From an uncultured Clostridia bacterium (lineage in GTDB: Bacteria; Bacillota; Clostridia; TANB77; CAG-508), in the NCBI GenBank assembly GCA_944386165.1, contig CALXAA010000005.1, forward strand, positions 3,328-67,327: 64,000 nucleotides of DNA, in the 5' to 3' direction. A program made the position numbers and the translations under genes. Of this stretch, positions 19,004 to 61,674 are shown piece after piece (position 1 is the stretch's first letter; every line of letters starts with the position of its first letter). The notes under the pieces were generated by a model, which was not told the origin of the DNA, made no database searches, and worked only from the letters and a program-made list of their open reading frames with translations.

Positions 19004-19071
19004 GTTGTCAATGGGGACGGAGATTTTGACAACTGACAAAAAAGTTGTCAAAATCTCCGTCCCCATTGACA
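19004..19071. repeat. REP-like doublet: two inverted copies of the dispersed hairpin repeat separated by 10 nt
   Basis: 19004-19033 reads GTTGTCAATGGGGACGGAGATTTTGACAAC. 19044-19071 reads GTTGTCAAAATCTCCGTCCCCATTGACA. The two are reverse complements over 28 nt. A partial TTGTCAATG stutter lies at 18994-19002. Confidence 0.9.
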
Positions 19072-19331
19072 CTAATTTTCATAATGACCACTACAAGAAA
19101 TTATAATCAAATTCTTATTTTCATCAAAATTATATACAAGGCGATGTTCTTGAGTTATTCTTCTACTCCATGCTTTCCTGTGTTTTAATGGCTCTGGTTT
19201 TCCAAGTCCTTTCTCTAGTCCATTTCTGTTGATATCTTTTATAAGTTCATTAATTTTTTTACCATTGATTTATCTTTCATTTGCCAATCTGTATACTCTT
19301 CCCAAGCTTTTTCGGAAAATATATTATTCAT
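19072..19331 (-). pseudogene. yoeB: YoeB/Txe-family type II toxin, disrupted by a 1-nt deficit in an A7 run
   Basis: The ATG at 19331 overlaps the antitoxin stop (ATGA). Frame 1 reads MNNIFSEKAWEEYTDWQMKDKSMVKK, then stops. With one extra A in the run at 19254-19260 it continues INELIKDINRNGLEKGLGKPEPLKHRKAWSRRITQEHRLVYNFDENKNLIIISCSGHYEN. This closely parallels E. coli YoeB (VKKINELIKD..GKPEPLKH..WSRRIT.EHRLVY). Confidence 0.85.
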
Positions 19332-19587
19332 TTTCCATCTCCTCTAATTCTTCAATGGTTTTAGTTACAGTTTTTCCTTTTTCTATTTGTTCAATGGATT
19401 TATCTATCTTATTTAAATACTCAGAATTTCTTAATGCTCTCATTAATTCATTATAATGTTCTAAGCTCATTAATACAACATTTTTTTCATCTTTTCTTGT
19501 AACAATTACTGTTTCATTATTGTCTGTGGCTTTATCACAATAGTCTTTTAATTTACTTCTAATAGTTGAATAATTAACTGCTAACAT
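19324..19587 (-). CDS. yefM: Phd/YefM-family type II antitoxin
   Basis: MLAVNYSTIRSKLKDYCDKATDNNETVIVTRKDEKNVVLMSLEHYNELM is a typical Phd/YefM N-terminal domain. AGGAG SD 8 nt upstream. Confidence 0.85.
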   Translation of the reverse strand: MLAVNYSTIRSKLKDYCDKATDNNETVIVTRKDEKNVVLMSLEHYNELMRALRNSEYLNKIDKSIEQIEKGKTVTKTIEELEEMENE

Positions 19588-19608
19588 ATAAATCACTCCT
19601 TTCTTAAT

Positions 19609-19659
19609 TGTACAACTTATTGTACTTAATATTGTACCATATTATTATATGCAAGTCAA
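19609..19659 (-). promoter_or_regulatory. yefM-yoeB promoter with phased TGTAC(A/T/C) operator hexamers
   Basis: Minus strand TTGACT(19654-19659)-17-TACAAT(19631-19636) with a TGg extended -10. Plus-strand hexamers TGTACA 19609, TGTACT 19621 and TGTACC 19633 lie exactly 12 bp apart and overlap the -10. Confidence 0.6.
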
Positions 19660-19693
19660 TGATTTTTATACACAATTTTTTATTCAAATTTCA

Positions 19694-19731
19694 TGTCAAT
19701 GGGGTGTCAAAATCTCCGTCCCCATTGACAA
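19694..19731. repeat. REP-like repeat copy with an abutting partial inverted arm
   Basis: TGTCAATGGGG (19694-19704) is directly followed by TGTCAAAATCTCCGTCCCCATTGACAA (19705-19731). An alternative 11-bp stem TGTCAATGGGG/CCCCATTGACA is possible. Confidence 0.9.
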
Positions 19732-19737
19732 TCGCCA

Positions 19738-22700: not shown

Positions 22701-22959
22701 CATATGCTCCTTCAACACCATCAATTTCTTGAAGTGCCGTTATATCTTCATCAGTTAGTCCTAGTGTTGAAATAATGTTTATATCATATAAATTACTACT
22801 ATCTGCGTATTTATCTAAACTATCTAACATATCTGGACTTGTTGCAACTAATCCCGCAAAAAAGCCTACTCCTAAAAATGCCATAACTAGTATAGATAGA
22901 AATCGTCTTCTTGTTTTAAATATTGTTTTTATATTATTTTTTAACAATGACTTTTTCAC
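19738..22959 (-). CDS. MacB/FtsX-type ABC transporter permease with two FtsX modules and a long coiled-coil extracytoplasmic insert (1073 aa)
   Basis: TM helix, large extracellular domain, 3-4 TM (FtsX-like), then a second repeat of the same arrangement. The central 300 aa are Q/E/K-rich heptad-like coiled coil. Paired with the ATPase upstream. Confidence 0.8.
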   Translation of the reverse strand: MKKSLLKNNIKTIFKTRRRFLSILVMAFLGVGFFAGLVATSPDMLDSLDKYADSSNLYDINIISTLGLTDEDITALQEIDGVEGAYGIQTKDSFALIDENESICKVIEYNENINTPTLIAGRLPENSNECLLDDAYVQTENPEEYIGKTITLQNEDLDENDNPIFTTKEFKIVGIVESPIYISSERGTTTIGSGKVSFYIYCKDDVINLDYYTEIGVKVSGAKEEVTDSNSYLKLVNPVYQKIEEIKEIREQARYDGLINEANEKIDEAQKEFDDKKAEADSELQDAENKINDAKNEISEQETTLNNSEKQLTQQEKNLNKQFSDAEKQISDAEEHINTKSAELESGKTELETQRTQANEAIGQIDSGITTAQNTLQQLETQKEQLIQAGMDTTEIDAGITTAQGTIDQLQAQKTEIQNQLKSAEEQITSGETELANAKAEIERQKSELETNKKTAYKKISNGKAEIEDGRKQIQEAKTEIETNEQEFQEKKAEAEQELNDAQAKIDEARQDITKIEKAKWYIQDRFDNTGYTNIFDAIETMSNISKMFPVIFYLVAVLISLTSMTRMIDEERTEIGTLKALGYTNMQIISKYILYAFLACVIGGILGMTVCFYLLPTIVWELYSMIYTIPQFYITYRVEIGLAGILIAFICIGGATILSAYKELKETPAILMRPKAPKNGKRILMEKITFIWKRFNFSQKITVRNIFRYKKRALITIIGIAGCTGLMLAGFGIRDSVSDIPDFQFNDIFKYETSITLSNTDGLNDITKYLSENENIENFHEVYASTGKVSNEEISYDVNIFVPNNTENFEEVCNLIDVKDEEKLQISNSGVIITDKLADTFEIEVGDEITIIDSDDIEHKLKVDGITQNYVSHYIYMSKEYYEANMGYTYKTNMILVNTKDISEEQQNTISEEILNFNGVASVSITSSLVKQVSDMLNTMNYIVIVLIVTSAMLEFVVLYNLANINIGERQREIATLKVLGFYDKEVDNYINKENMVFTVFGVILGLGLGVLITSGIIASIEIDSLRFAENILLSSYIISAVTTIVFSLIVNFIIHFVLRKIDMIESLKSVE

Positions 22960-23891: not shown

Positions 23892-23980
23892 TTATTTTTG
23901 ATTTTGTGTCAAAATTAGCGTTTGTTATTTTTGATTTTGTGCAAAATAGCTGTTGAATTATTTTTGATTTTGTGTAAAAT
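23892..23980. repeat. three 23-24 bp direct repeats phased at exactly 33 bp (candidate regulator binding array)
   Basis: TTATTTTTGATTTTGTG(T)(C)AAAAT starts at 23892, 23925 and 23958, with unrelated 9-10 nt spacers. The third copy abuts a TATAAT at 23985-23990. Confidence 0.8.
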
Positions 23981-24319
23981 GTAGTATAATATCAGTAACA
24001 ATATTACAAAAAAGTACGCATTATGTAGTACTCCTCCTTTCAACCTTTAAGCGAAGGGCAATTCAATTATATTACTTTTCAACTAAACATAATATTAAAT
24101 TGACTTTTTATAAGAGGCTAATTCTAGAAAATATTGTAGTTCAAATGTTAATTAGTAATAATAGAAAATTATATTTCTTTAAGAAATTAATAATGCTCTT
24201 GAAAAAGGATGAATTACATAAAATGATACAAAATAATTTTATCTAAAAAATTAAAGCAAACTAACTTTTTGCTATATTGTAATTTTTTCAATTTGTTACT
24301 TTTTTTTCCATTACAAGTA

Positions 24320-24347
24320 TTGACATTTTTTCAAATTATAGTATAAT
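24320..24347 (+). promoter_or_regulatory. near-consensus sigma-A promoter (TTGACA-16 nt-TATAAT)
   Basis: TTGACA at 24320-24325 and TATAAT at 24342-24347, 70 nt upstream of the ATG at 24418. Confidence 0.6.
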
Positions 24348-24417
24348 ATTGAATGTACTACTTAGGTAGTGCATAAAAAAAGGTTGGTTCAATCATTTAG
24401 CAAATAGGAGGTTTCTC

Positions 24418-24867
24418 ATGAAATCAAAATCTAAAGTTTTGGCTCTTATGATAGGCCTTGTGATGATGTTCAGCTCCAACTTGCCCGCTTTTGCAGCAGA
24501 AAATGCTGAACCGGAAGTTGAACTCATTCCCGTTTCGGTTGAATCTGATGGAATTGTTCCCTTTACCGTTGGCCAGGAAACTACTTTCAAAATTGGAGAA
24601 GTTGGATACCTCGACGATTGTGGAAATTTTCCTGCCTTTGAAATGTGGGTAACAGGAGGAACTAGTTCCACCCAGGTTATGTTTGAACTGACATCATCTG
24701 GTGGCGTCAAGTACGGTCCTTGTGGTCCAGTCTCCGCTGATAACTCCAACTATTGGAGATTCAGCCATTTTGTTCTGAATGGTGGAGGTTCCTGGAGATT
24801 CACTGCTTATGTGTCCAAAGGTACCAATACATCTAATCTTGTCTGCCATGTAAGACAAGTAGAATAA
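24418..24867 (+). CDS. small secreted protein of unknown function (149 aa precursor), compositionally foreign
   Basis: Sec-type signal peptide (MKSKSKVLALMIGLVMMFSSNLPAFA/AE). AGGAGG SD. Gly/Ser/Thr-rich, beta-rich-looking mature part with 3 Cys. Visibly higher G/C than its neighbours, which also creates a spurious antisense ORF. Confidence 0.7.
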   Translation: MKSKSKVLALMIGLVMMFSSNLPAFAAENAEPEVELIPVSVESDGIVPFTVGQETTFKIGEVGYLDDCGNFPAFEMWVTGGTSSTQVMFELTSSGGVKYGPCGPVSADNSNYWRFSHFVLNGGGSWRFTAYVSKGTNTSNLVCHVRQVE

Positions 24868-24924
24868 CGACTACTTACTTCTCTATATGAAAATGTAAGT
24901 AACCTAAATTAGAGCCAACCTTTT

Positions 24925-24963
24925 CAGCTACGAGTAATAATTAGAACTTGTAGCTGTTTTTTT
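24925..24963 (+). terminator. rho-independent terminator of the secreted-protein gene
   Basis: Stem CAGCTACgAG / CTtGTAGCTG followed by seven T residues. Confidence 0.6.
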
Positions 24964-25016
24964 ATTATGATAATTATATTAATATGTTTTAAAACAAATG
25001 TAACAATACATAAATA

Positions 25017-25059
25017 AAAAACATACTAAAACATGTAATATACATTTTAGTATGTTTTT
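25017..25059. terminator. bidirectional terminator
   Basis: Perfect 15-bp stem AAAAACATACTAAAA / TTTTAGTATGTTTTT with a 13-nt loop, immediately after the ABC-2 permease stop codon. Confidence 0.7.
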
Positions 25060-25062
25060 AAA

Positions 25063-25920
25063 TTATCTTATTTCTTGTTTTTTAAAAAAATATAATCCAA
25101 CTATATTTGATACTAATATTAGTCCTAAAGCATATTTTGGCATTTCGGTTAGATTTTCTTTTATTTTATTTACTTTTTCTTCATCAATTATAGAACTTTC
25201 ACTACATGCCATATGTACAACATCTGCTTGTCCTGTTGGAATTAAAAAATATATTGTTTTATAAATTCTCAATTCTTTTTCTTCTGGATAATTTGGATTA
25301 GGTTGTTTATCTATTACATGTTGTCCTTGCTCATCATAATATGTGCTTACTATATACTTAGAAGTATTAACCTTTTGGCTAACTATACTATTAACTACAA
25401 ACATTGTAACAAATAAGATAATACAAACTACAAGAGCAATTGATGCGTCTGAACAAAACATAGTAATTAAATTATAAATTGAGCAATAAACTGTAACAAT
25501 TAAAATTGTATATAAAAAGATTTCTCCCAAACTCATTAATTGTTGTAAATTTCCATATATTTTTGTGCCAAATAATAAAACAGTACCAATATAAATTGCT
25601 TCTAAAACTAATCCTGCAAAAATAGATATGATTAAATTTGCTAAATAAATATGCATTCTTTTATGTCCTGAAATAATTTTATTTCTAATAGTACCTCCTG
25701 TATATTCTTTTCCAACATATACACTTATAAAAATCGCAATTATAATTCCAAAATAATTTGCCATGTATTCAGTTATGATTCTATCTATTACTATAGAATC
25801 AACCATTGATTGATAACGATATACTGCAAATAAAGAAAGTACAAAACTTATTAAAATCATTACAAGAAAAATTTTATCTTTTTTTAATTTATAAAAATTG
25901 GCATTTAATAATTTAAACAT
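25063..25920 (-). CDS. ABC-2 type transporter permease (6 TM)
   Basis: Hydrophobic six-helix profile. Its start overlaps the upstream ATPase gene by 8 nt, suggesting translational coupling. Confidence 0.75.
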   Translation of the reverse strand: MFKLLNANFYKLKKDKIFLVMILISFVLSLFAVYRYQSMVDSIVIDRIITEYMANYFGIIIAIFISVYVGKEYTGGTIRNKIISGHKRMHIYLANLIISIFAGLVLEAIYIGTVLLFGTKIYGNLQQLMSLGEIFLYTILIVTVYCSIYNLITMFCSDASIALVVCIILFVTMFVVNSIVSQKVNTSKYIVSTYYDEQGQHVIDKQPNPNYPEEKELRIYKTIYFLIPTGQADVVHMACSESSIIDEEKVNKIKENLTEMPKYALGLILVSNIVGLYFFKKQEIR

Positions 25921-26827
25921 TATTGTTACCTCCTATTAAATTAATATAATACTCTTCTAGTGTTTCTTCCTTTTCATGAAAATCATTAATTACACAATTT
26001 TTATTTGACAGTCCAACCACAAGTTCTGAAATATTTACTTTATCATATATATTAATTAATTTATCGGTAATTACTTCAAAATCAATTTTCTCATTTTTTA
26101 AATATTTAGTACATTCTTCTACATTATTGACATTTATTTCAACTATTCTCTTACAATTTTTTTCTAACTCTTTACTTGTAATCTCTTTTATTATTTGACC
26201 ATTATTTAAAAATCCATAGTTTGTAGCTATTTTGGAAAGTTCATCTAAATAATGGCTTGATATTAAAAATGTAATATTTTTTTCTTTATTAAGTTTTAAA
26301 ATAAGTTCTCTTATTTCTATAATTCCTTCTGGATCTAGTCCATTTATAGGCTCATCTAAAATAAGAAAATCATGATTTCCTGCTAGTGCAATAGCAATTC
26401 CTAATCTTTGTTTCATTCCTAAAGAAAATGTCTTTACTTTCTTTTTTCCTGTTTCTGCTAATCCTACAAGTTTTAATATATCATATATACTCTTATAGTT
26501 AGATATTCCCAATATTTTATATTGTATTTTTAAATTTTCTTCTGCAGTCATATCTAAATAAATAGATGGACTTTCTATAATTGCTCCCATTCTTTTTCTT
26601 GCTTCTATAATTTTTGAGCTTTCACTAGAAATTTTATAAATAGTATAAGTACCATTTGTTGTTTTTTGTAAACCACAAATTACTCTCATTAAAGTTGTTT
26701 TGCCTGCTCCATTTTTTCCAATAAGTCCATAGATTGCACCTTTTTCAATATGTAAGTTAAGATTAGAAAGAACTAAATTTTTCTTATATTTCTTTACAAT
26801 GTTATTTGCTTCCAAAACATATTCCAT
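25913..26827 (-). CDS. ABC transporter ATP-binding protein (ABC-2 / bacitracin-lantibiotic-immunity-like subfamily)
   Basis: Walker A GKNGAGKTT, signature FSLGMKQRLGIA, Walker B FLILDEPINGLD. Confidence 0.9.
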   Translation of the reverse strand: MEYVLEANNIVKKYKKNLVLSNLNLHIEKGAIYGLIGKNGAGKTTLMRVICGLQKTTNGTYTIYKISSESSKIIEARKRMGAIIESPSIYLDMTAEENLKIQYKILGISNYKSIYDILKLVGLAETGKKKVKTFSLGMKQRLGIAIALAGNHDFLILDEPINGLDPEGIIEIRELILKLNKEKNITFLISSHYLDELSKIATNYGFLNNGQIIKEITSKELEKNCKRIVEINVNNVEECTKYLKNEKIDFEVITDKLINIYDKVNISELVVGLSNKNCVINDFHEKEETLEEYYINLIGGNNNV

Positions 26828-26969
26828 ATTTTTCCTCCTATTTAAAACGTATTATATCATCAATATTAATAAATAGCAATATTATTACATTAAAATTATA
26901 GAAAAGTATTTTTTATACACATATTTACATTTTTTTCTATTATAATACAATATTAAGAGTAATAAAATA

Positions 26970-27000
26970 AGGAATATTCCTAGATTTTAGGAACGTTCCT
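26970..27000. promoter_or_regulatory. twin 12-bp perfect palindromes AGGAAnnTTCCT (terminator or operator)
   Basis: AGGAATATTCCT at 26970-26981 and AGGAACGTTCCT at 26989-27000. The outer arms AATAAGGAA/TTCCTTATT can also pair. Lies between the giant glucan-synthase stop codon and the ABC operon promoter region. Confidence 0.5.
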
Positions 27001-27005
27001 TATTT

Positions 27006-30000
27006 TTACATCTCAACATCAATATTAAAAACTTTTCCAGAGCCATCAAGAAGAATTCTATTATCAGACTCAATGCCATTTATCAAAACTCTTTTAACAC
27101 CTGTGCAAGATTTTGAGATATTATTTACTTTTATATTATAAATACTTTCACCATATTTATATTGTACAGAATATTTATCCCAATTATGTGGAATACATGG
27201 CTGAATACTTAAAATATTATGGTGAACTTTTAGACCTAGTATATATTCTATTCCTGCAATGTAATACCAACTACTTGAGCCTGTATACCATGTCCAGCCT
27301 CCTTGTCCTACTAAGTTCTGTGCACCATAGATGTCTGCTGAAATTACATATGGTTCTACTTTATATTTGTTTGCTTCTTCTTTTGTTTTTGTATGCTCAA
27401 TAGGATTTATCATCTTATACCATTGAATTGCATTGTCTCCATTTCCTAACATTGTTTCTGCAATTATTGCCCAAATTGCAGCATGTGTATATTGCCCTCC
27501 ATTTTCTCTTACTCCTGGCAAATATGCTTTTATATATCCTGGTTCTAATTTGCTTTTTTCAAATGGTGGATCTAATAATTTTATTAGTCCATGTTCTCTA
27601 TCAACTAAATGATTTCCTAAGCTTTCCATTGCTACTATCTGTTTTTCTGAATCTCCCGCTTCTGATATTACACTCCAGCTTTGTGCAATACTGTCTATTT
27701 TACATTCTTCATTTTCCATACTTCCATATACATCACCATTGTCTGCAAATGCTCTTTTATACCATCTTCCATCCCAAGCATTTTTATTTAGATTTTCTTT
27801 TAATTTATTTGCTATTCCTATATATCTTTCTGCTGTTTCTATATCTGTTTTTATATCAATTTTTGTATTTTCCATATTTGACTCAATTTCATCATTTATT
27901 TCATAATTTTTTGCATATTCTGCAAATTCAACTAAAATAGAATATAAGAAAAATCCAAGCCAAACACTTTCTCCCTTTCCTTTTGGTCCAATATTACTAA
28001 ATCCATCATTCCAATCTCCTATTCCTATTTTAGGAATTCCATGTTCTCCAAATTTACATGCTCTGTCTATTGCTTTTTTGCAATGTTCATATATAGTTCC
28101 TTCTATTTTGCTTTGCAAATATTTATCATATTTTTCTTTTTCATCTTCACTTAATTCTGCTCCTTGTAAATATGGAGTTTTAACTTTTAATATACTGTAA
28201 TCTCCTGTGAAATTTATATATTTTATTACTGCATATGGGAGCCAAAGTAAATCATCTGAAAATTTAGTCCTAATTCCTCTTTCATTTTCATCATGCCACC
28301 AGTGTTCTACATCACCTTCAATAAATTGATGTTTACTGTGCTTAATAATTTGATTATAAAGAATATTAGTGTCTATAAACTTACTAGAAAATGTATCTTG
28401 TAATTGGTCTCTAAAACCATATGCTCCACCAGATTGATAAAATCCTGTTTTTCCTAATAGTCTACTTACAAGTGTTTGGTACATCACCCATCCATTTAGT
28501 GTAATATTTAAAGATTCATATGGTGTATTTACTTGTACTCTTCCTAAAACTTCATTCCACTTGTTTTTTACTTTTTGAAGTTCCATATTGCAATTCTGAA
28601 TATTTGAATATTTATATGCTATATCTTTTGCTGTAATTTTGTTTTCTTCTGCTCCTAATATAATTGATATTTTCTTTTCAGAAAAGCTTTCTATTTGAAC
28701 CTCTAATTCTATTGCAATACAAGATTTTTTACCAATTCCATTATCATTATCTAATCTCATACATTTTAAAGCATCTGGTGATGTTATTCCACCTTTTCCA
28801 AAAAATTTTGATTTATTTCCTGTAAAAGATTTTATTTTTTCACTACTTGATACATAAATAATATTGTTTAATGGATCTTTATTATATAATTTTTTAGCAA
28901 TAATAACATTTGAATTTTCTTCATATTGTAATTTTATATATCCATCTGTTTTTAATTCATCTTCTCCAAGTACTGGTTTTATATAATAATATATTTTAAT
29001 TTTTTTCTTTTTAGGTGCATTGTTTTTTAAAGTCAAAATGTTTATTTTTGCTGAGTCTTCATTTGGAACAAATACTTCTAGTTCTTGAATTATATCATCA
29101 CTTGAATGAATAAATTTTGCATATCCAAATCCAAATACTGTATTATAGTTTTTTTCATCAGGTGTAGGCATTGCAGTTGGAGACCATATTCTGCCTGATT
29201 CTTCATCTTTTAAATATATAGCTTCTGTTGGTGTATTTATTGTAAAACTGTTGTGCCAAGCAGTTATTCTATTAAGTCTACTATTTCTATACCAAGTATA
29301 TCCTCCATTTGATTCTGTAACTACTGTTCCAAAGTTTTGGTTTGCCATGATATGACTCCATGTTGTAGGAGTTTTCTGCTCTTTATTTATTTTTATCCAA
29401 TATTCTTTTCCATCTTGTGAAAATGCTCCATATTCATTATAATATTTTAGATTTTCTGTGTTTGCGAGCATATCTATTTCATTAGAATTATCTTCTTCTA
29501 TTGATGGCAAATCTACTAATTCTGTTACTCTATAATTATCTATTACATCTTCTTCCATATCTTTTATAATATTTTCTAAATTTCCTAAATGACTATCTAT
29601 TACAAGAGAAGAAACAAATTTTATTAATCTTACATCTTTACTGTCCATTTCACTTTTTGAAAGTATAAATATACCTCCAAAAATGTTTTTTAAATATGCT
29701 AATTGACTATTTAAAACCGCTCCTTCTACTTCATTTCTAACATAATTTTCATAACTATAATTTTCTTCATCTATTATTACTAATTCCATTTTTAAGTTTC
29801 TCATCCTTAAATATTCATACATTTTTATAACTTGTTTTACAACATATATATCATTTAAATATTTAATAGTTACTGTAATTATTGGAAGTTCTCCAGAAAT
29901 TCCATATTTCCATAAATCTTCTTGTTTGAATTCTTCATTTTGATTATTCTTTTTTGATTTTAATGGATTATCAAATAATATATAAGATGCAATTGTTTGA

Positions 30001-33000
30001 TAAATGTCTATATCTTTTCCCTTTACTTCCATATATCTTGATTCTGCATCTGTTTTTGCTTTTACAATTTCAAATTCTCTTGAAACATTTTCTATATTTT
30101 TATATTTTTCTATATTTTTTTGTGCTAGTTCTTTAGTGTATTCCACTGATAAAATTAAATCAACATAGCCCTTTGATTTAGGTGGAATTTTAATTGTATT
30201 TTTTATTGCTACTATTCCTTCTGTTACAAGTCCTATTTTTTTAGATAATGGTGTTGAATTTTTTATTGCATTTGGAACACTTAAATTATTTCTTCCAATA
30301 AATTTTTCTTTATTTATTTCATATTCTGTTTCTCCTATTTTTTCTGCATTTGTCTGCATTTTTGCAATTAAATACAATCCTTTTTGATTTGTTTCTCTTT
30401 GGTTTCTTTTTATAATCATTTCATCTTCTGTTTCATTATAGCTAAAAAGTAAAAATAGATTGTTAAAAGCTGTGTGTGCATAATCTTGTTCTTTTTTTGA
30501 TAGTACTGGTTCAAAATAACTTGTAACTTCAAAAATTTTGTCTTCACCAGATAAATTTTGTATTTGTAATCTTCTTATTTCTACTGGTTCATTTGCATCT
30601 GCTATTATAGAAAATTTGGTTTTTAAATCTTCATTTTCTTTTTGAAATTCGTTTCTATCTGGCATGAAGCTAATTGTAAATTTATCGCAATTTTCTTCTC
30701 CTGTAACATATTCTATTTTGTTTGATTTTATATCTTTTAAACACATGAAAATACCTTGACTATAATCATCTGTTATTTTAAATCTATTTATATAATTATC
30801 TTCAAATTTACTAACTCCTTCTCCTTTTTGATTTATTCCTATAACATATTTTTCATTTCCTATAATATTTCCTCTTATTATTCTTTCATCAATCTTTGTA
30901 TATTGTCTTACACTATAATTTTCATAATCTTGATATTTTATTTTTTCTGGTTTTTGTTTATTTTCTTTAGTAACTATAAATGTTTCTGGCATTCTTTCTT
31001 GTAACAAAATACTTACAGCTTCTATTTCTGGATTTTGCATAAATCTTTTTTGAAATATTTGATTATTAAAGAAATTGTTTATTGAAAGCAATATTAGTGC
31101 TTGATGATGTGCCATATAAGTTTTTACAGGTTCAGAAGTTTGTCCTTTGGCTAATCTTTCTGGTGTATAATCAATTGATTCGAAAAAGCCATATTTACTT
31201 TTCATTCCTTGTTTTTCTAATTCTTTTATATTTTTTACAACTTCTTCTGAAACATCTGAAAGTGCAAGTATACTTCCATAACTTGAAACAACCATTTCAT
31301 CTTCTAAGCCTCTTTTTAGACCAAGCCATGGAATTCCAAATGCTTTATATTGGTAGTTTGAATGTAAATCTTTTAAATTAAATGCTGCTTCTGACATTCC
31401 CCAAGGTATTCCTAGTTTTTGACTATATTCTATTTGGTTCATTATTGCAAATTTACTTGATTCATCAAGTAAACTTCCATTATATCTTTTGATATTAATA
31501 TTTGGCATTAAATATTCAAAAGATGTTCCAGACCATGATACTAGTCCTTTATATTTTTTTAATACTGTTAATGTTCTACTTAAATTGTTCCAATGTTTTG
31601 GTGATACATCTTTTTTAGCTATTGCAACTAAACTTGCTTGTCTTGCTTCTGATGCTAATAAATCATAATATGAATCTGTTAATTTATTTTCTTCTACATT
31701 AAATCCTATTGAAAATACTCTTTGTTCTTCACTATATAAAATTTTAAAATCTGTTTCTTCTATCATTTTATCTAATTTTTCTATTAAATCATTTAGTTCT
31801 TGTTTATCTTTATTTTTATCTAAAATATCTTGTAAAAATGTTTTGGTTGTATACATATATCCTACTAAATTACCACTATCAACTGTTGATACATATCTTG
31901 GATATAATGGTTCTTTTGTTTTTATATTATACCAATTATATAAATGCCCATTCCATTTTGGAAGATTATATACACAATTTATAATTTTTTCTAATAAATT
32001 TAGTGTATCTTCTAAATTTTCAAATTTTAAGTCATAACTTGATATAACTGCTAAAAGTGAAAGTCCAATATTTGTTGATGAAGTTCTTGATACTACAATT
32101 GGTTTTCTGTCTTGTTGATAATTATCTGGCATTAAATAATTATTTTCTTTTGTTAAATAATCTTTAAAAAATTGCCAAGTTAATTTTGCAATATCTATCA
32201 AATATTTTTTATCTTCTTCATTTATAGCCATTTCTTTATTTTCATGTATTTGACTTATCTTAAACATTATATAAGGTACTATTATCCACAAAATTCCAAC
32301 AATTGTTAATAAAATATTTTGTTTAAAAACTGCAAGTATTATTGATAAAATTCCTATTATTACATTTATAAACATTGTTTTATAATATGTTGATATATCT
32401 GTTTTTGATTGTTTCTCCGCTTCTTCTGATGTCATCCATTCTAATAGATGTTTATGTGATATTTTTAATCTATAAATTGTTTTTACAATTGAAACAATTG
32501 ATATATATGCTTTATATGGTAAACAGCCTAAAGTTAGCACTGCTCTTATAATGGCTCCTTTAAAACCATCTATTTGTGGATTAAATGTTTGTTGTTTTTT
32601 CTCTCCTTCTTTAATTGAAAATGCTCTTGAAAAAATGTCTAGTAAAAATGGATAAATTACAATTCCAAGACCTAAATATATTAATAATTTTGAATTATTT
32701 AAAAATACTAAACTCCAAATTAGTAATATCATTATTGAGATTTCAAATAAACTTCTTCGTAAATTATCTAATATTTTAAATTTTGATATAGTATTTAATT
32801 TACTTTTAAGCCAACTTTTTATCTGCCAATCTCCTCTAATCCAGCGAGATAATCTATTCATAAAGCTTAAATATTTTGCTGGATATCCATCTATTAACAT
32901 TATATCTGTTGCAAGTCCACATCTTAAGTAACATCCTTCTAATAAATCATGACTTAAAACTGTGTTTTCTGGTATTTCATCTTTTAATACTTTTGAAAAT

Positions 33001-40619: not shown

Positions 40620-41651
40620 CTAACTATTCAAAATTTTATTTTGTTCAAAATGTTCTATCATCTTGTCTACTGCTTTATTTTCAACAAATTTTTCAGCTTG
40701 CCTAATCGTAAATTCAAAAAGTTCTTCATCACTACTTCCATGTGCTTTTACAACTGGTTTTTTTACTCCTAAAAATAATGCTCCTCCATATGATTTATAA
40801 TCCATTGTTTTTTTGAAACGTTTAATTGCTGGTAAACATGGTATTGTACAGATTTTAGCAAGTATATTTTGTGTTAGACTTTCTGTTAATGTTCGTTTTA
40901 CAAATTTTCCAATTCCTTCTGTTGTTTTTAAGAAAACATTTCCTGTGAATCCATCTGTTACTATTGCATCTATTTTTCCTGAAAATGCATCTCTACCTTC
41001 TACATTTCCTACAAAATTTATTCCTAGTTCTTCAGATTTTTCTTTTAATAATTTATAACTTTCTTTTACTAAGTCATTTCCCTTGGTTTCTTCTGTTCCA
41101 ATATTTAATAATCCTATTGCTGGTTTTTCAATTCCAAATGTATTTTTTAAATATATTGTTGACATTTGCGCAAATTGTAACAAATTAATTGGCTTACAGT
41201 TGGTGTTTGATCCTGAATCTATTAATAAAAGTTGACTTTTATATGCTGGTAATATTCCTGCTAATGCAGGTCTATCTATTCCTTTAATTCTTCCTACTAT
41301 TAGCGTTGCTCCAGCAAGCAATGCTCCTGAGTTTCCAGCAGAAATAAATACATCTCCTTCGTTTTCTTTTAGCATTCTAAATCCTACTACCATAGATGAA
41401 TCTTTTTTATGCTTTATTGCATCTGTTGGTCCATCTTCCATTTCTATAATTTCTGTTGCATTTTTTATTTTTAGCCTATTAGAAATTTCTTCTGGTTCTT
41501 TCCCTGTGAATTCTTTTATTTTACTTCTAATAATGTCTTCTTTTCCTATTAGTGTTATTATTGCTTTAACTTCTTTAACTGCTTTGAGTGCTCCTTTTAT
41601 ATTTGCATCTGGGGCATTATCTCCACCCATTGCATCTAATAAAATGTTCAT
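40620..41651 (-). CDS. plsX: phosphate acyltransferase PlsX
   Basis: MNILLDAMGGDNAP N-terminus and full-length PlsX similarity. Gene order plsX-acpP-rnc. Confidence 0.95.
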   Translation of the reverse strand: MNILLDAMGGDNAPDANIKGALKAVKEVKAIITLIGKEDIIRSKIKEFTGKEPEEISNRLKIKNATEIIEMEDGPTDAIKHKKDSSMVVGFRMLKENEGDVFISAGNSGALLAGATLIVGRIKGIDRPALAGILPAYKSQLLLIDSGSNTNCKPINLLQFAQMSTIYLKNTFGIEKPAIGLLNIGTEETKGNDLVKESYKLLKEKSEELGINFVGNVEGRDAFSGKIDAIVTDGFTGNVFLKTTEGIGKFVKRTLTESLTQNILAKICTIPCLPAIKRFKKTMDYKSYGGALFLGVKKPVVKAHGSSDEELFEFTIRQAEKFVENKAVDKMIEHFEQNKILNS

Positions 41652-54536: not shown

Positions 54537-54592
54537 TTGTCAATGTCAATGTTGTCAATTGGGTTGTCAATGAGGACGGAGATTTTGACAAC
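54537..54592. repeat. REP-like repeat copy (reverse orientation) preceded by stuttered partial arms
   Basis: TTGTCAATGTCAATGTTGTCAATTGG is followed by GTTGTCAATGAGGACGGAGATTTTGACAAC (54563-54592; 1 mismatch to consensus). Confidence 0.9.
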
Positions 54593-54855
54593 TTTTGACT
54601 ACGGAAACGTTATGAGAAAGCTATTGTAATTAACTTAATAAAAAAATTTGTACTGATTAAATGGTATTTGATTAAAAAAACAAAATCTTACCCTAAAACA
54701 TTTACTTAATTTAATTGTTACGAACTAGAGTCAAATAGTTTTTAATTAATTTCTCATTTTGCACATGTAATTTGTTACTGGTGTTATTTGTAAACTTAAT
54801 TTATCATTTTTTTTTGGTATTATAAATTTAAATATATTGATAAATGAGGTATTAT

Positions 54856-55101
54856 ATGGGAAATAAAATGGAACAAGATATCTATTATTTAGTTGGTCAA
54901 AATATAAAAAAGCAAAGGAAATTAAAAAATTTAACACAATTACAATTAGCAGAAAAATCATTTTTTAGTTATGAATTTATAAGAAAAATTGAGTCTAAAA
55001 GTTCATGTAGAAACACTTTTTCTTTAGACACTGTTGATAAAATTGCAAAAGTTCTTGAAGTTGATATTAGAATTTTATTTGAACCTTTAGATGAGGAATG
55101 A
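54856..55101 (+). CDS. XRE-family helix-turn-helix transcriptional regulator (81 aa)
   Basis: The QNIKKQRKLKNLTQLQLAEKSFFSYEFIRKIE motif is typical of HTH_3/XRE. ATG at 54856 lies 6 nt after GAGG. Confidence 0.8.
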   Translation: MGNKMEQDIYYLVGQNIKKQRKLKNLTQLQLAEKSFFSYEFIRKIESKSSCRNTFSLDTVDKIAKVLEVDIRILFEPLDEE

Positions 55102-55145
55102 TGTCAATGGTTGTCAAAATCTCCGTCCCCATTGACACATTGACA
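55102..55145. repeat. REP-like repeat copy (forward orientation) with partial arm and terminal 8-nt duplication
   Basis: TGTCAATGG + TTGTCAAAATCTCCGTCCCCATTGACA (55111-55137) + a duplicated CATTGACA. Begins 1 nt after the xre stop codon. Confidence 0.9.
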
Positions 55146-55235: not shown

Positions 55236-55496
55236 ATGAAAATGAAACGCTGGACTTTAAAACTTATTATTGCAGTAATAATAGCAACAATTATATTCTT
55301 GTGTAGTAAAATCATATTTGAACTGTGTTCATATCCCGAAAGTAATAGAACAACTTCGTCTCAATGTGACAAAAAAGAAAATATTAATTCTAATGATGCC
55401 TACTATGCTATGGCACAAATGTATCTTGCTCAGGGAAATTTGGGGATGTGGAATTTTTATATGAGCATGGCCAATGCTAATGGTCAACATAATTGA
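55236..55496 (+). CDS. small membrane protein (86 aa), unknown function
   Basis: Strong AAAGGAGGAAAC SD. One N-terminal TM (LKLIIAVIIATIIFLCSKIIF). Followed by a very strong terminator. Confidence 0.6.
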   Translation: MKMKRWTLKLIIAVIIATIIFLCSKIIFELCSYPESNRTTSSQCDKKENINSNDAYYAMAQMYLAQGNLGMWNFYMSMANANGQHN

Positions 55497-55672: not shown

Positions 55673-55714
55673 TATTTATTGCTTGAGAATTGAAATTCAA
55701 GAATGTATCAAAGA

Positions 55715-55743
55715 GTGTCAATGGGGATGGAGATTTTGACAAC
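55715..55743. repeat. REP-like repeat copy (reverse orientation), left flank of the Y1 transposase gene
   Basis: GTGTCAATGGGGATGGAGATTTTGACAAC; 2 mismatches to consensus. Confidence 0.9.
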
Positions 55744-55764
55744 TTTTACTTATTTTGTTTTTTG

Positions 55765-56484
55765 CTATTGATTATAAATTTTTCTAACCGTTTCTCTACT
55801 TATTTCTAATTCTTCTGCTATTTTTCTCAACGAAATTTTATTTTTATCTTTCAAAAGCAAAATTAGTTCCTTTAACAATTCCTTTCTTTGTTTTATAGAT
55901 TTTAAGTCTATCCTGTTTTCTTTTAAATATGCTTCTATAATTTTATTACATGTTATCACATTCTTTTCATCCACATCAATAAATACATATTCTTCATTAT
56001 TGCACTCACTGTTAGTCATCAAACTATATCTCTCTTTAAATTCGGTTTTCATCATTTTATAATTTGAATAAGGATATTCTTCAGGTTTGTTACATATTCC
56101 TGCTTTTACGGGATTATTATAGATATATTTTATGCAGTTATATAAATGTTTTTCACTATATATTCCTTCCGCTTTATACCTATCTCTAAAAACATAGCCA
56201 ACTCTACTATATTTTTTATTATAATATTTTCCATATGTAGTATTAATTCTTTGCATATATTTACTTAATTGTTCAATTAATTGCGTTTTTATTAACATAT
56301 GTGTATGATTATTCATTATACAATATGCTATTATATTGATGTTATGTTCTTCTTTTATTTTATACATTATTTTTACATAATATTTTATATCTTCTGGTTT
56401 TTCAAAAATATAACTTTTTTCAATTCCTTGAGTAATTACATGGAAAAATGGAGTATTCATGTAGTTTCGCGGAAGTCTTGACAT
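55765..56484 (-). CDS. IS200-like Y1 (HUH) transposase of the REP-associated tyrosine transposase (RAYT) type, with a C-terminal HTH-like tail
   Basis: HUH motif in CIMNNHTHMLIK. Catalytic-Tyr region YNCIKYIYNNPVKAGI and GYVFRDRYKAE are typical of COG1943/Y1_Tnp RAYT-like proteins. The C-terminus LRKIAEELEISRETVRKIY looks like a helix-turn-helix. Confidence 0.8.
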   Translation of the reverse strand: MSRLPRNYMNTPFFHVITQGIEKSYIFEKPEDIKYYVKIMYKIKEEHNINIIAYCIMNNHTHMLIKTQLIEQLSKYMQRINTTYGKYYNKKYSRVGYVFRDRYKAEGIYSEKHLYNCIKYIYNNPVKAGICNKPEEYPYSNYKMMKTEFKERYSLMTNSECNNEEYVFIDVDEKNVITCNKIIEAYLKENRIDLKSIKQRKELLKELILLLKDKNKISLRKIAEELEISRETVRKIYNQ

Positions 56485-56498: not shown

Positions 56499-56547
56499 AC
56501 AAAAATAGTATGATATAATAGCAAATATTATATCATACTATTTTTGT
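56499..56547 (-). promoter_or_regulatory. 21-bp perfect inverted repeat abutting the RAYT ribosome-binding site
   Basis: ACAAAAATAGTATGATATAAT / ATTATATCATACTATTTTTGT with a 7-nt loop. On the minus strand the hairpin ends directly at AAAGGAGG, 6 nt before the ATG. Contains TATAAT on both strands. Confidence 0.8.
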
Positions 56548-56593
56548 ATTTTTTGTCGAAACTTGTAATTATTTAAATTTTTTTATTATAAAA

Positions 56594-56623
56594 GTTGTCA
56601 AAATCTCCGTCCCCATTGACAAC
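56594..56623. repeat. REP-like repeat copy (forward orientation, full 30-nt consensus)
   Basis: GTTGTCAAAATCTCCGTCCCCATTGACAAC, 12 nt from the 3' end of tRNA-Gly. Confidence 0.9.
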
Positions 56624-56635
56624 CTTCAAAAAAAT

Positions 56636-56709
56636 TGGAGCGGGTAGAGGGAATCGAACCCTCACCACCAGGTCGGAAGCATGGGATTCTACCATTAAAC
56701 TATACCCGC
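56636..56709 (-). tRNA. tRNA-Gly (anticodon UCC), CCA encoded
   Basis: Hand-folded cloverleaf: 7-bp acceptor GCGGGTA/TACCCGC, T-arm GAGGG-TTCGATT-CCCTC, anticodon loop CT-TCC-GA, 74 nt including the 3' CCA. Confidence 0.9.
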
Positions 56710-59012: not shown

Positions 59013-59072
59013 AATTAAATATTTGAGAGCACATTTGTGCTCTTATTAATTATTAAAAGAAAGAGGTAAAAA

Positions 59073-59657
59073 ATGATTGTAAAAAATCCACAATTTGAAG
59101 TTTCTGCTGTTAATAAAAAGCAATATCCAAATAATGGCTTACCAGAAGTTGTTTTAGTTGGTAAATCTAATGTTGGGAAATCTAGTTTTATAAATACTAT
59201 GATTAATAGAAAAAAATTAGCTCGTACTAGTAGTGAGCCTGGCAAAACTCGTCAACTTAATTTTTATAATATTGATAATTTATTTTATTTTGTTGATTTG
59301 CCTGGATATGGTTTTAGCAAAATGTCTAAACAAGAACAGGTTAAAGTTGGTGAATTTATAGAAGATTATTTGAAAAATCGTAAAGAAATTTGTTTGATTA
59401 TTTTTTTAGTTGATATAAGACATGACCCAACTTCAAATGATTATTTAATGTATGATTATGTTGTTAGAAGTGGTCTTCCTTTTATGATTTTAGCTAATAA
59501 AGCTGATAAAATTGCTAAGACTAAAGTAAATGATACTGCTAAAAATATTCAAAAACAACTTAATCCTATTGGAGATATTCCTACTCTTCCATTTTCTTCT
59601 GAGAATAAGATTTATTCTGATGATGTGTGGAAAATAATTGAAGAACATATTAATTAA
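59073..59657 (+). CDS. engB: ribosome biogenesis GTPase EngB (YsxC/YihA)
   Basis: G1 GKSNVGKSS, G3 DLPGYG, G4 NKADK. Confidence 0.93.
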   Translation: MIVKNPQFEVSAVNKKQYPNNGLPEVVLVGKSNVGKSSFINTMINRKKLARTSSEPGKTRQLNFYNIDNLFYFVDLPGYGFSKMSKQEQVKVGEFIEDYLKNRKEICLIIFLVDIRHDPTSNDYLMYDYVVRSGLPFMILANKADKIAKTKVNDTAKNIQKQLNPIGDIPTLPFSSENKIYSDDVWKIIEEHIN

Positions 59658-59675
59658 TGTGAAAAAAGCTGATGT

Positions 59676-59864
59676 TTATTTATCAGCTTTTTTCTCTATT
59701 TTTGTTATTGCTTTTAATGCTTTAGGTCTTTCAAGCACAACAATATGTCCACAACCTTGGCATTTTAATTTAAAGTCAACACCTACTCTTGTGATTTCCC
59801 ATAATTTGCAACCACAAGGATGAGGCTTTTTAGTTCTTACTATATCTCCAACATTGTACTCCAT
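59676..59864 (-). CDS. DUF951-family small protein
   Basis: 62 aa with KKPHPCG..W.I.R.G.D..L.C..CG, a Cys4-like pattern recalled for DUF951. Convergent with engB and sharing a hairpin terminator. Confidence 0.6.
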   Translation of the reverse strand: MEYNVGDIVRTKKPHPCGCKLWEITRVGVDFKLKCQGCGHIVVLERPKALKAITKIEKKADK

Positions 59865-59888
59865 ATTGTTGCTCCTTTCCCCTAGTTT

Positions 59889-61550
59889 TTATTTCAAATT
59901 TTCAATTGCTTTTTCAAAACGTTTTTGTATTCTTTCTTTTCCAAGAACTTTCATAATTTCATACATATCTGGTGTATTTGTTCTAGATGTTAAAGCAACT
60001 CTTAATACTGTACTTACATCTCCTACATGAGCTTTATATTTTCCTGGGTTTGCTTTAAATTCTTTTACTTCTCCTGCATATCCTTTTTCTACTGATAATT
60101 GTTTTATTTTGTCAAACCAAGTTTGCTTATCATCTTCTTCATTATAATATTTTTCTATATATGAGTTTAAAATTTCTTTTATTTCGTCTTTTTCTGATAT
60201 TGCAGGTTGATATGGATAATCTTGTTCTTTACTGTAAAATTTTTCGTCATACATATATTCAATGTTATACATTACATCAGACCATTTTGAAATGTCTTTT
60301 CTAGGTTTTTTGTTTCCTCTCTCTATTCCAAATACTTTTAATGCATATTCTTTGTCTTTTAACATTTCTGCTAATTCTGAGTCATATTCTTTTGCCCATG
60401 TTAAAGTTTTTTCATAAACTTCTTCTGCTGTCATTTTTGATATTACTGTTTTTCCAATATCTAGAAGTTTAACCATATCAAATAATGCTCCACTTACACT
60501 CATTTTGTTTAATTGAAAATCAAATTCGTCTATTGATTTATCTGGATTTGCTCTTCTCCAATTTTCAAATGTAGAGTTTGCAATATTTAGTAAATATTCT
60601 TTTACAGCTAATGGTGGTATTCCTTCTTTTTTGTAATATTCTACTGCAGCTTCTGGATCTTTTCTTTTACTTAATTTACGTTTTCCACCATTGTCATTTT
60701 TCATAATTGGTGAAATGTGTGCATATTTAGGTGCTTTAAATCCTAACTCTTGGAATAATTGTAAGTGTAATGGTACTGATGATAACCATTCATCACTTCT
60801 AATTACATGTGTTGTATGCATTAAGTGGTCATCAACTGCATGTGCGAAATGATATGTTGGTAGTCCATCTGCTTTGATTATTACTATATCTAAATCGTTT
60901 TCTGGGAAGTCTACATTTCCTTTTATTATGTCTTTGTGTTTTATTTTTCTGTCTTCTCTTCCTGGTGATTTAAATCTTACAATATATTGTTCCCCATTTT
61001 TTATTTTTTGTATTGCTTCTTCAACAGATAAATTTCTACATTTTGCCCATACTCCATAATATCCTGGTCTTATTTTTGCTTCTTCTTGTTTTTTTCTTTG
61101 TTCTTCTCCTTCTTCTGGTGTGCAAAAACATGGATATGCTTTTCCTTGTGCAATTAAATATTTTGCATAAGCTTGATATATCTCTTTTCTTAGAGATTGT
61201 TTGTATGGTCCATATGATCCTTTTTCTTCTGTATCTGAAATCATTCCTTCATCAGGTGCCATATCAAAGTCTATTAGTGAATTTACAATATCTGTTACAC
61301 CATTTTTTATTTCTCTTTTTTGGTCTGTGTCTTCAACTCTTAAGAAAAATACTCCATTTGTTCTTTTTGCACATTCTATTGCTACTAGTGCTTGATATAA
61401 TCCTCCTATATGTACAAATCCTGTAGGACTTGGTGCAAATCTTGTTACTATTGCCCCTTCTGGTAAATTTCTTTCAGGATATTTTTCTTCATAATATGAT
61501 ATATCTTTCGCATTTGGAAAGATTAATTCTGCTAAATCTTTGTAATCCAT
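59889..61550 (-). CDS. gltX: glutamyl-tRNA synthetase (long form)
   Basis: Class I HIGH-type motif (PSPTGFVHIGG) and KMSKS-type motif (KLSKR). Start set at MDYKDLAE, 9 nt after AAGGA. Confidence 0.9.
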   Translation of the reverse strand: MDYKDLAELIFPNAKDISYYEEKYPERNLPEGAIVTRFAPSPTGFVHIGGLYQALVAIECAKRTNGVFFLRVEDTDQKREIKNGVTDIVNSLIDFDMAPDEGMISDTEEKGSYGPYKQSLRKEIYQAYAKYLIAQGKAYPCFCTPEEGEEQRKKQEEAKIRPGYYGVWAKCRNLSVEEAIQKIKNGEQYIVRFKSPGREDRKIKHKDIIKGNVDFPENDLDIVIIKADGLPTYHFAHAVDDHLMHTTHVIRSDEWLSSVPLHLQLFQELGFKAPKYAHISPIMKNDNGGKRKLSKRKDPEAAVEYYKKEGIPPLAVKEYLLNIANSTFENWRRANPDKSIDEFDFQLNKMSVSGALFDMVKLLDIGKTVISKMTAEEVYEKTLTWAKEYDSELAEMLKDKEYALKVFGIERGNKKPRKDISKWSDVMYNIEYMYDEKFYSKEQDYPYQPAISEKDEIKEILNSYIEKYYNEEDDKQTWFDKIKQLSVEKGYAGEVKEFKANPGKYKAHVGDVSTVLRVALTSRTNTPDMYEIMKVLGKERIQKRFEKAIENLK

Positions 61551-61612
61551 TTTCAACATTCCTTGCTTTTTATATTTAGTTTTTGGTTTTAAACTATAAC
61601 CTTTTATTTTTT

Positions 61613-61674
61613 GTTGTCAAAATCTCCGTCCCTATTGACATTTTTCGTTGTCAAAACTTCCGTTCCCATTGACA
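61613..61674. repeat. two tandem direct copies of the REP-like repeat
   Basis: GTTGTCAAAATCTCCGTCCCTATTGACA (61613-61640) and GTTGTCAAAACTTCCGTTCCCATTGACA (61647-61674), with a 6-nt spacer. Located between the gltX start and the amylase stop. Confidence 0.9.

Follow-up and report, generated by a model that had tools for sequence, protein, structure and literature searches.

A dispersed family of hairpin repeats, most likely spread by a REP-associated tyrosine transposase encoded among them, in an uncultured gut Clostridia lineage

Introduction

What are the short, near-identical hairpin repeats that lie between the genes of an uncultured Clostridia bacterium, and which enzyme, if any, spreads them? 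We addressed this question for a 64,000-nt stretch of contig CALXAA010000005.1 (assembly GCA_944386165.1, positions 3,328 to 67,327 of the forward strand), which has a G+C content of about 27% and is referred to below, as a whole, as the window. A sequence-only reading of the window had taken the repeats for mobile elements of the REP (repetitive extragenic palindromic) or REPIN (REP doublet forming hairpin) type, and our results bear this out: the repeats bracket the gene of a tyrosine transposase that is REP associated (RAYT), are carried by 14 related species, recur as head-to-head doublets, and are inserted or deleted between strains. The RAYT open reading frame (ORF; 55765-56484, minus strand) lies within the interval described in that reading, which overlooked it. 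We conclude that the repeats are very probably a RAYT-associated REP family (a REP/REPIN-RAYT system of the REPtron/TIRtron type) and that the RAYT encoded in the window is what most likely spreads them.

Results

One repeat family occupies seven intergenic spacers

The repeat unit in the window is GT-TGTCAAAATCTCCGTCCCCATTGACA, with the anatomy AA[AT]GT-TGTCAA-(14-nt loop AATCTCCGTCCCCA)-TTGACA; we call its GTTG end the head, its 3' end the tail, and plus- and minus-strand copies F and R, respectively. The 26-nt core TGTCAAAATCTCCGTCCCCATTGACA had nine matches in the window (19006-, 19046+, 19705+, 54565-, 55112+, 55716-, 56596+, 61615+, and 61649+) and the 30-nt consensus had eight at up to 3 mismatches, with 0.00 expected by chance from dinucleotide-preserving shuffles of the window. 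A search that allowed indels found no additional degenerate copies in the window, of which the hairpin repeat is the sole real dispersed repeat family. The copies had been counted as 10 at six intergenic loci; they are real, but they amount to nine full copies and one remnant in seven spacers, and the coordinates and orientations reported for them were all right within 1 nt, including a partial arm (TGTCAATGGGG) at 19694-19704. The spacers are those between gatC and a yoeB-like gene, an FtsX-type permease gene and yefM, an SNF2 helicase gene and an XRE gene, the XRE gene and an 86-aa ORF, the 86-aa ORF and the RAYT gene, the RAYT gene and tRNA-Gly, and the GluRS and alpha-amylase genes. ORFs of at least 100 amino acids (aa) make up 85% of the window, yet not one of the nine copies overlapped such an ORF. 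A CRISPR-like or tandem array was rejected, given the irregular spacing and the presence of copies in both orientations. The copies and their partial arms are listed below; CALYAA is a closely related metagenome-assembled genome (MAG).

18993-19003, minus strand: tail-side partial arm TTGTCAATGAG, an 11-nt "stutter" beside an R copy, missing from the 97-99% identical MAG CALYAA
19004-19033, minus strand: left half of a head-to-head doublet, a REP copy with 0 mismatches
19044-19071, plus strand: right half of the doublet, a REP copy whose tail abuts the stop codon of the yoeB-like gene
19694-19704, minus strand: remnant TGTCAATGGGG of a deleted partner copy, as seen by comparison with CALYAA
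19703-19730, plus strand: REP copy whose end lies 7 nt short of 19738, where the stop codon of the FtsX/MacB-type permease gene ends
54538-54562, minus strand: three tail-side partial arms, TGTCAATG, TGTCAATG, and TTGTCAATTGG, one of them the -35 box of a 12/12 sigma-70 match
54563-54592, minus strand: REP copy, 1 mismatch, between the SNF2 helicase and XRE genes
55102-55110, minus strand: head-side partial arm TGTCAATGG, resembling the remnant at 19694-19704 and probably the remnant of a truncated partner copy
55110-55145, plus strand: REP copy (55110-55137) with tail stutter CATTGACA (55138-55145), just past the XRE stop codon
55714-55743, minus strand: REP copy, left bracket of the RAYT gene, 21 nt downstream of its stop codon
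56594-56623, plus strand: REP copy, right bracket of the RAYT gene, 109 nt upstream of its start codon and 12 nt from the 3' end of tRNA-Gly
61613-61640, plus strand: first copy of a tandem direct REP pair in the GluRS/alpha-amylase spacer, with 1 core mismatch
61647-61674, plus strand: second REP copy of the tandem pair, degenerate, with 3 core mismatches

A position matrix built from 168 copies in 15 genomes (the window and the fetched tiles of 14 MAG species, with 3 mismatches allowed) showed that the conserved unit is asymmetric, consisting of AA[AT]GT followed by the 26-nt core, and that its most conserved part is the asymmetric loop. The 5' GT was conserved (G in 130/168 and T in 149/168 copies), but the 3' AC was not (A in 73/168), so the stem, which had been given as 8 bp, has 6 bp in every copy and 8 bp in some only. 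The single unit folded with -5.8 kcal/mol (z = -5.7), and doublets folded into long, almost perfect hairpins of -36 to -69 kcal/mol (-36 kcal/mol, z = -11.6, as single-stranded DNA for the doublet formed by 19004-19033 and 19044-19071). The stuttered partial arms noted earlier at the outer ends proved to be systematic: an extra TTGACA was found within 40 nt of the tail end in 54/167 copies versus a background of 1.9%, and these tail stutters are nested partial copies that all terminate in TTGACA.

A RAYT gene lies between two inverted copies

The gene between the brackets, and a palindrome in its leader, are as follows.

55765-56484, minus strand: RAYT gene, 239 aa, with a Y1/HUH domain (H60-x-H62, Y120-x3-N-P) and a C-terminal helix-turn-helix (HTH)
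56500-56546, no strand assigned: palindrome with a 20-bp stem, just ahead of the ribosome-binding site in the RAYT leader

The protein matched Pfam Y1_Tnp (4e-11), its residues 202-238 matched HTH_11, HTH_23, and HTH_28, and it scored 81.4 bits with the NCBIfam model for REP-associated tyrosine transposases (NF047646, cutoff 80) and 19.3 bits, below the cutoff of 55, with that for IS200 (transpos_IS200). Residues H60, H62, Y120, N124, and P125 were invariant in an alignment of 11 homologues, in which the C-terminal region was conserved as well. A profile of this alignment had a single match in the PDB, 4ER8, the structure of Escherichia coli TnpA-REP with a REP hairpin (E = 2.8e-4), with the HUH and YIxxNPV motifs lined up. 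Foldseek with an AlphaFold model of the RAYT also returned 4ER8 first, followed by IS200/IS608 transposases; since the model is of low confidence (pLDDT 62), we regard this fold match as supporting evidence only.

The flanks of the gene (55711-55748 and 56589-56626) form a 38-nt inverted repeat that is 92% complementary. Both units lie less than 200 bp from the gene and are oriented R...F, with their GTTG heads pointing inward; a RAYT gene between inverted units is the classical REPtron arrangement. A 62%-identical RAYT homologue is bracketed R...F by nearly the same unit, with a loop one base longer, and its locus also has a counterpart of the leader palindrome (L096 I3, 2911-2964), which is kept in deletion derivatives of the unit. 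By analogy with the leader hairpins of IS200, this palindrome may limit RAYT expression. A tnpB gene is absent.

The family and its RAYT recur in related genomes

When one genome per species was scanned for the exact pattern, the repeat turned up in 95 stretches from 14 species-level MAGs, all labeled as uncultured Clostridia, Eubacteriales, Clostridium sp., or Bacillota, and thus the motif is not confined to the window. Two MAGs had at least 43 and at least 36 copies in their fetched tiles, lower bounds that agree with the tens to hundreds of copies per genome by which a REP-RAYT system in the broad sense is recognized. Across the 168 copies, 152 (about 90%) were outside ORFs of at least 100 aa, which make up 81% of this DNA. 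The R...F bracketing of the RAYT gene was seen at seven loci in six MAG species, and the main RAYT copy was syntenic (SNF2 - XRE - RAYT - tRNA-Gly) in several species at a local nucleotide identity of 84-89%. Relatives of the RAYT were found in 13 of 72,556 plasmid records, all with less than 40% identity and confined to the N-terminal domain, and in one phage record. These results indicate that the system is chromosomal, with relatives nearly absent from plasmids and phages.

Several metagenome contigs begin or end in a repeat copy (L058, L065, L073, and L075, with the copy at contig positions 28-29), and contigs L102-L106 start about 110-135 nt upstream of the RAYT gene. The family thus fragments short-read assemblies of these genomes, and the copy numbers of MAGs are underestimates.

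Doublets replicate as units, and a deletion series links them to the RAYT unit

Next, we looked at how copies are paired. Pairs within 150 nt of each other were head to head, with their GTTG ends facing, in 40 of 46 cases. The doublet spacers fell into discrete classes (4, 8, 14, 17, 19, 44, 48, and 51-52 nt) that were common to several loci and species, and in the 4- and 19-nt classes the spacer ends pair too, giving an almost perfect long palindrome. Gene-less R-spacer-F doublets measured 56-160 bp. In one MAG (CAKNJL), a 71-nt doublet, including its spacer, was present at ten loci with unrelated flanks. Recurrence with unrelated flanks shows that the doublet, beyond the single hairpin, is a replicating unit, and a replicating doublet is the behavior by which REPINs are defined (RAREFAN/Bertels & Rainey).

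The R...F spacing of intact RAYT units was 854-882 nt (about 860), and below it we found a series of shorter spacings, of 732 (a pseudogene), 421, 413, 301, 121, 111, and 81 nt. The shortened spacers still matched the leader and trailer of the RAYT gene, and hence at least the doublets with longer spacers are internal-deletion derivatives of the gene-carrying unit. The singlets and tail stutters are decay or by-products.

A deletion series of this kind is exactly how miniature inverted-repeat transposable elements (MITEs) originate, and we therefore weighed whether the RAYT unit might be an autonomous parasitic element of the IS200/IS605 kind, a recent invader with the short copies as its MITEs, instead of a partner in a long vertical association. 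Two MAGs, CALYBE (RAYT units at four loci, one of them intact and the other three decayed) and CALXHG (two units), lend themselves to this explanation, as does the description of Group 1 RAYTs as the most insertion sequence (IS)-like of the RAYTs. We nevertheless consider it unlikely. The ends of the unit are inverted copies of one hairpin and not distinct left-end and right-end hairpins on the same strand, the score with the IS200 model was far from its cutoff, and both the synteny of the main copy across species and the near absence of relatives from plasmids and phages speak against a recent invader. Moreover, for each gene there are more than 40 short copies, and the repeat is almost unchanged beside the 62%-identical RAYT, which points to long co-residence.

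Copies come and go between strains

The closest genome to the window is that of MAG CALYAA (BRZ_MP_bin6; 97-99% identical). Relative to CALYAA, the window lacks 43 nt at 19704/19705, comprising a full R copy and a 17-nt spacer, of which a remnant was left behind, and it has an additional 11-nt tail stutter at 18993-19003; the shown flanks of both indels are otherwise identical. In the spacer orthologous to that near position 40647, another species has an insert of ~70 nt with a copy, where the window is empty. Among strains with identical RAYT genes, the spacer between the XRE gene and the small ORF has two alleles, one with a full copy and one with 75 nt and an internally deleted copy. Furthermore, in a strain whose RAYT is 100% identical (L101), a 4.25-kb segment between two direct copies replaces the single copy at 56596, and direct copies probably act as recombination substrates.

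The 4.25-kb segment (L101 1574-5890) contains ORFs of 82, 140, and 1013 aa. The junction of tRNA-Gly and the repeat (window 56588-56636; L101 1574-5890; L093 7228-8000) is a hot spot of variation; in CALYAA, tRNA-Gly is followed by an element whose first gene encodes a serine recombinase.

Hairpin and transposase co-vary across distant relatives

A metagenome scan for RAYT relatives returned 80 loci with 28-59% identity, 55 of which could be examined. Inverted repeats in the same orientation bracketed the gene in about 45 of these 55, and many loci had three to five copies, doublets included. The relatives' repeats consist of an arm, a segment containing GGGGAC(G), and a complementary arm. The arms differ among lineages (TGTCAA, TGCCAA, GTGTCAAG, GAGTCA, GGCAGGCAA, CCTGTTTTT, and others) around a conserved GGGAC core, with an arm-to-arm distance of 11-17 nt, and the loop motif, GGGGACGG in the window lineage, is GGGGACAC or GGGGACAG in some relatives. 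We then swapped arms among 36 lineages in an alignment-free test: the mean longest helix was 6.47 bp for cognate arms versus 4.13 bp for swapped arms, and 0 of 10,000 permutations reached the cognate mean. These sequence comparisons suggest that the hairpin is retained while its stem sequence changes and that hairpin and enzyme co-vary over a wide clade. In a 40%-identical relative (L117, 39-168 and 1115-1244), the gene is flanked by inverted arrays of about three tandem ~43-nt units (TTCCCCCTCAGGGGACACACACCGGAAGGGGAATTT), each a small hairpin with GGGGACAC, so that the same theme is seen here as an array.

Binding of a dimeric protein to two double-stranded half-sites would likewise preserve arm complementarity, and the swap test is thus no proof of a hairpin. 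This brings in a different explanation, in which the units are double-stranded operators (TGTCAA/TTGACA half-sites ~20 bp apart) that make up the regulon of a dimeric HTH regulator, be it the C-terminal HTH of the RAYT or the neighboring XRE protein. It would account for the inverted arms, for the HTH on the RAYT, and for the position of the XRE gene between two copies, and co-evolving palindromic operators would likewise show arm complementarity across lineages. We judge it highly improbable all the same, as copies lie at 3' ends, in the spacers of convergent genes, and beside a tRNA as often as in promoters; head-to-head doublets with 4-52-nt spacers turn up as units between unrelated flanks; the RAYT unit has deletion derivatives; the presence of copies varies between strains; and the part conserved best is an asymmetric loop. 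An arm distance of 11-17 nt is also awkward for a site of fixed geometry. We favor a hairpin over half-sites because of this variable distance and the known single-strand chemistry of HUH/Y1 enzymes.

A general promoter or terminator role for the repeats is not supported

We also evaluated whether the repeats are host-selected structural signals (terminators, mRNA stabilizers, or -35 donors) that were spread by recombination and lie next to a RAYT gene incidentally. The arms' TTGACA is the sigma-70 -35 consensus, and each arm had been proposed earlier to act as a -35 donor facing outward. Two window copies do have good -10 boxes: upstream of the SNF2 helicase gene, TTGACA-17-TATAAT on the minus strand (from 54543 to 54515) matches sigma-70 at 12/12 positions, with the -35 from a stuttered partial arm, and a second strong promoter-like site, from 61620 to 61593, matches at 11/12. 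Single copies may thus donate promoters in isolated cases. As a general property, however, donation does not hold up: good -10 hexamers 16-18 nt from the outward TTGACA were found at 6/168 copies on the tail side and 8/159 on the head side, equal to control spacings. The suggestion that copies act as terminators fared no better, in that none of the terminator-like sites found in a scan of the window coincided with a copy, whose loop is 14 nt long and which has no T tract. At gathering thresholds, tRNA-Gly was the sole Rfam match, and hence the repeat is not explained by any known RNA family. Classical REPs are known to affect mRNA stability, which also counts in favor of structural signals. 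Taken with the bracketing of the RAYT gene kept in about 45 lineages, which means that the adjacency cannot be incidental, these results leave this explanation with very little probability.

The strand carrying GGGGACGG was the G-rich strand in 41/53 singlets (P value = 8e-5) and in 24/35 after de-duplication (P value = 0.04). This bias fits an action on the lagging-strand template, as in IS200/IS605, if the analogy holds.

Genes beside the copies

The XRE-type HTH gene (54844-55101, plus strand) lies exactly between an R and an F copy, the same bracket geometry as that of the RAYT gene, and the 86-aa ORF between it and the RAYT gene (55236-55496, plus strand) had no family match. Since a yefM/yoeB pair and the XRE gene sit between copies, we considered the copies as integron attC-like or cassette boundaries; most long-spacer R...F pairs turned out to be decayed RAYT units, and the cargo idea was kept for the XRE gene alone. 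The yoeB-like toxin gene (19075-19331, minus strand), downstream of yefM (19324-19596), is frameshifted by a run of seven Ts, where the 99% identical CALYAA has eight and an intact frame of 86 aa; the frameshift marks either a pseudogene or a homopolymer sequencing error. Elsewhere, ~3.1 kb of the window (23914-27002) corresponds to ~160 nt in CALYAA (L080), with no REP copies at its ends. It contains an ABC-2 permease gene (25063-25920), an ABC ATPase gene (25913-26827), and a 149-aa ORF without a family match, and it is followed by a single ORF of 2710 aa (27006-35138, minus strand).

Discussion

A proposed mechanism modeled on IS200/IS605 and TnpA-REP

We propose that the repeats are short hairpin DNA units that serve as the nonautonomous partners of the Y1/HUH RAYT encoded at 55765-56484 on the minus strand. 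In single-stranded DNA, mainly of the lagging-strand template, a unit would fold into a 6-8-bp stem, whose shape, together with the conserved GGGGACGG loop, would be read by a RAYT dimer. The HUH/Tyr center would then cut and rejoin the single strand, and in this way units or doublets would occasionally, at low frequency, be copied or relocated to further intergenic sites. Contacts with double-stranded DNA, or autoregulation, are the probable contribution of the C-terminal HTH, and tail stutters may arise as by-products when cleavage and rejoining abort or through slippage. Effects on neighboring genes (an occasional -35 box, RNA hairpins) and recombination between REP copies would be side consequences and not the family's reason for being. 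We infer this mechanism, including the binding, the cleavage site, and the active strand of this clade's RAYT, from the IS200/IS605 and TnpA-REP paradigm.

Several points weigh against reading the repeats as a RAYT-associated REP family. As for the protein, the NCBIfam cutoff was exceeded by just 1.4 bits, E. coli TnpA-REP is very distant (phmmer E = 0.04 with a single sequence), and the structure model is the low-confidence one described above. In the repeat, the classical 5' GTAG tag is absent, with GTTG in its place; the single-unit hairpin is weak, with a 6-8-bp stem and a 14-nt loop; the swap test has the ambiguity already set out; and RNAalifold found no consensus structure when 28 lineage hairpins had been aligned by MAFFT without guidance, owing to a large loop and to stems that do not fall in register. 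Gene orientation confounds the strand bias, which is marginal once orthologous sites are collapsed. Copy counts are lower bounds, taken from fragmented MAG tiles, and the extra units of CALYBE and CALXHG look more like insertion sequences than like a fixed single-copy RAYT. Furthermore, published surveys describe HTH-bearing RAYTs (subclass 2.1/Group 1) as lacking REP-like flanks, with REPINs in Groups 2 and 3 only.

Relation to known systems

The system shares its main traits with the E. coli REPs and bacterial interspersed mosaic elements (BIMEs) and their TnpA-REP (RayT/YafM; Group 2, subclass 2.2; 4ER8): a Y1/HUH protein with HUH and Y-x3-NP motifs, a gene bracketed by inverted hairpin repeats as in the E. 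coli REPtron, and repeats that are short, extragenic, numerous, and often in inverted pairs. It differs from them in that the proteins are only about 20% identical and the RAYT studied here has an extra ~100-aa C-terminal HTH region; in that its repeat has no GTAG foot and combines a perfect 6-8-bp stem with a 14-nt loop, whereas the E. coli REP has a long imperfect stem and a short loop; and in its host, a low-GC Clostridia lineage and not one of the Proteobacteria. The repeat's GTTG foot, which follows AA[AT], fits neither GTAG nor the degenerate forms of Di Nocera (GYRG-like). The strict criterion for Groups 2 and 3 is a tblastn E value below 1e-30 to the YafM of E. coli or of SBW25, and our comparisons with E. 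coli TnpA-REP gave 0.04 with the sequence and 2.8e-4 with the profile. In the strict sense, the RAYT of a REPIN-RAYT system is also single copy, immobile, and inherited vertically; the conserved synteny and the near absence of relatives from plasmids and phages agree with this, and the extra units of CALYBE and CALXHG do not.

The REPIN-RAYT systems of Pseudomonas and Stenotrophomonas (Group 3, subclass 2.5; Bertels & Rainey) are similar in that two inverted REPs within 130 bp of each other replicate together, a REP is found less than 200 bp from the RAYT gene, positions are extragenic, and synteny of the main RAYT is kept between species. Compared by description, the doublets studied here are shorter (56-160 bp), and some genomes have extra and decayed RAYT units.

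TIRtrons, with their TIRYT proteins (Di Nocera 2013), correspond for most TIRYTs to TnpA-Y1 subclass 2.1 (Quentin 2018) and to RAYT Group 1 (Bertels 2017). Proteins of this class are long and RAYT-like, with a C-terminal HTH (HTH_23-, HTH_28-, or Bac_DnaA_C-like), and their genes have inverted-repeat flanks with GGGG[AT][CG]A[CG]; some TIRtron inverted repeats form moderately abundant families in dimers or clusters, and Group 1 RAYTs have been reported in Clostridia. The window's system resembles TIRtrons in its long HTH-bearing RAYT and its inverted-repeat flanks. Of the TIRtron motif, GGGGACGG fits 7 of the 8 positions, with G and not A at position 7, and the GGGGACAC and GGGGACAG of some relatives fit exactly. 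Unlike in published TIRtrons, each flank here is a hairpin whose stem covaries among lineages and whose loop holds the GGGGAC motif. By its sequence, the protein appears to have the features of subclass 2.1/Group 1, an assignment made by shared features only.

With IS200/IS605 elements (IS608, ISDra2), the system shares internal-deletion derivatives and, in the mechanism proposed above, Y1/HUH chemistry, the recognition of DNA hairpins, and single-strand "peel and paste" linked to the lagging-strand template, with which the strand bias of the singlets agrees. The ends of such elements, however, have no inverted repeat and consist of two unlike subterminal hairpins on one strand, whereas the system described here lacks tnpB, falls short of the IS200 model (19.3 versus 55 bits), and has a syntenic main copy. 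Moreover, its RAYT units within one genome are diverged or decayed and not identical full-length copies.

REP-RAYT/REPIN systems are well described in the Proteobacteria and have been studied almost only there; a search for literature describing RAYTs or REPs in Clostridia found nothing specific. The system is thus of a known kind. What is new is its occurrence in an uncultured gut Clostridia lineage, where such systems have hardly been described, and its combination of features, namely, an HTH-bearing RAYT, hairpins with a conserved loop, REPIN-like doublets, and a visible deletion series. It is quite possible, although we would stop short of calling it probable, that an HTH-bearing RAYT of the subclass 2.1/Group 1 type is here, for the first time, clearly tied to a REPIN-like population, and this outside the Proteobacteria; that the GGGGWSAS inverted repeats of this class are in truth hairpins that hold the motif in their loop and whose stems covary over dozens of lineages; and that the clade keeps all stages from the gene unit through deletion derivatives to minimal doublets of 56 nt and singlets. 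If so, the clade would be a natural record of how REPINs originated from an IS200-like ancestor.

What the family means for RAYT biology

In practical terms, MAG assemblies break at the repeats, which also mark hot spots of rearrangement among strains, such as the 4.25-kb segment between direct copies. The mechanism of transposition of REP/REPIN-RAYT systems, and their IS200-like origin, are still unsettled, and for both questions this clade offers a compact and well-conserved hairpin unit, a RAYT with an added DNA-binding domain, recurring doublets, and a series of deletions down to a minimal doublet. The family also suggests hairpin partners for Group 1/subclass 2.1, the largest and least understood class of RAYTs, and such partners would alter how these "domesticated" transposases are read.

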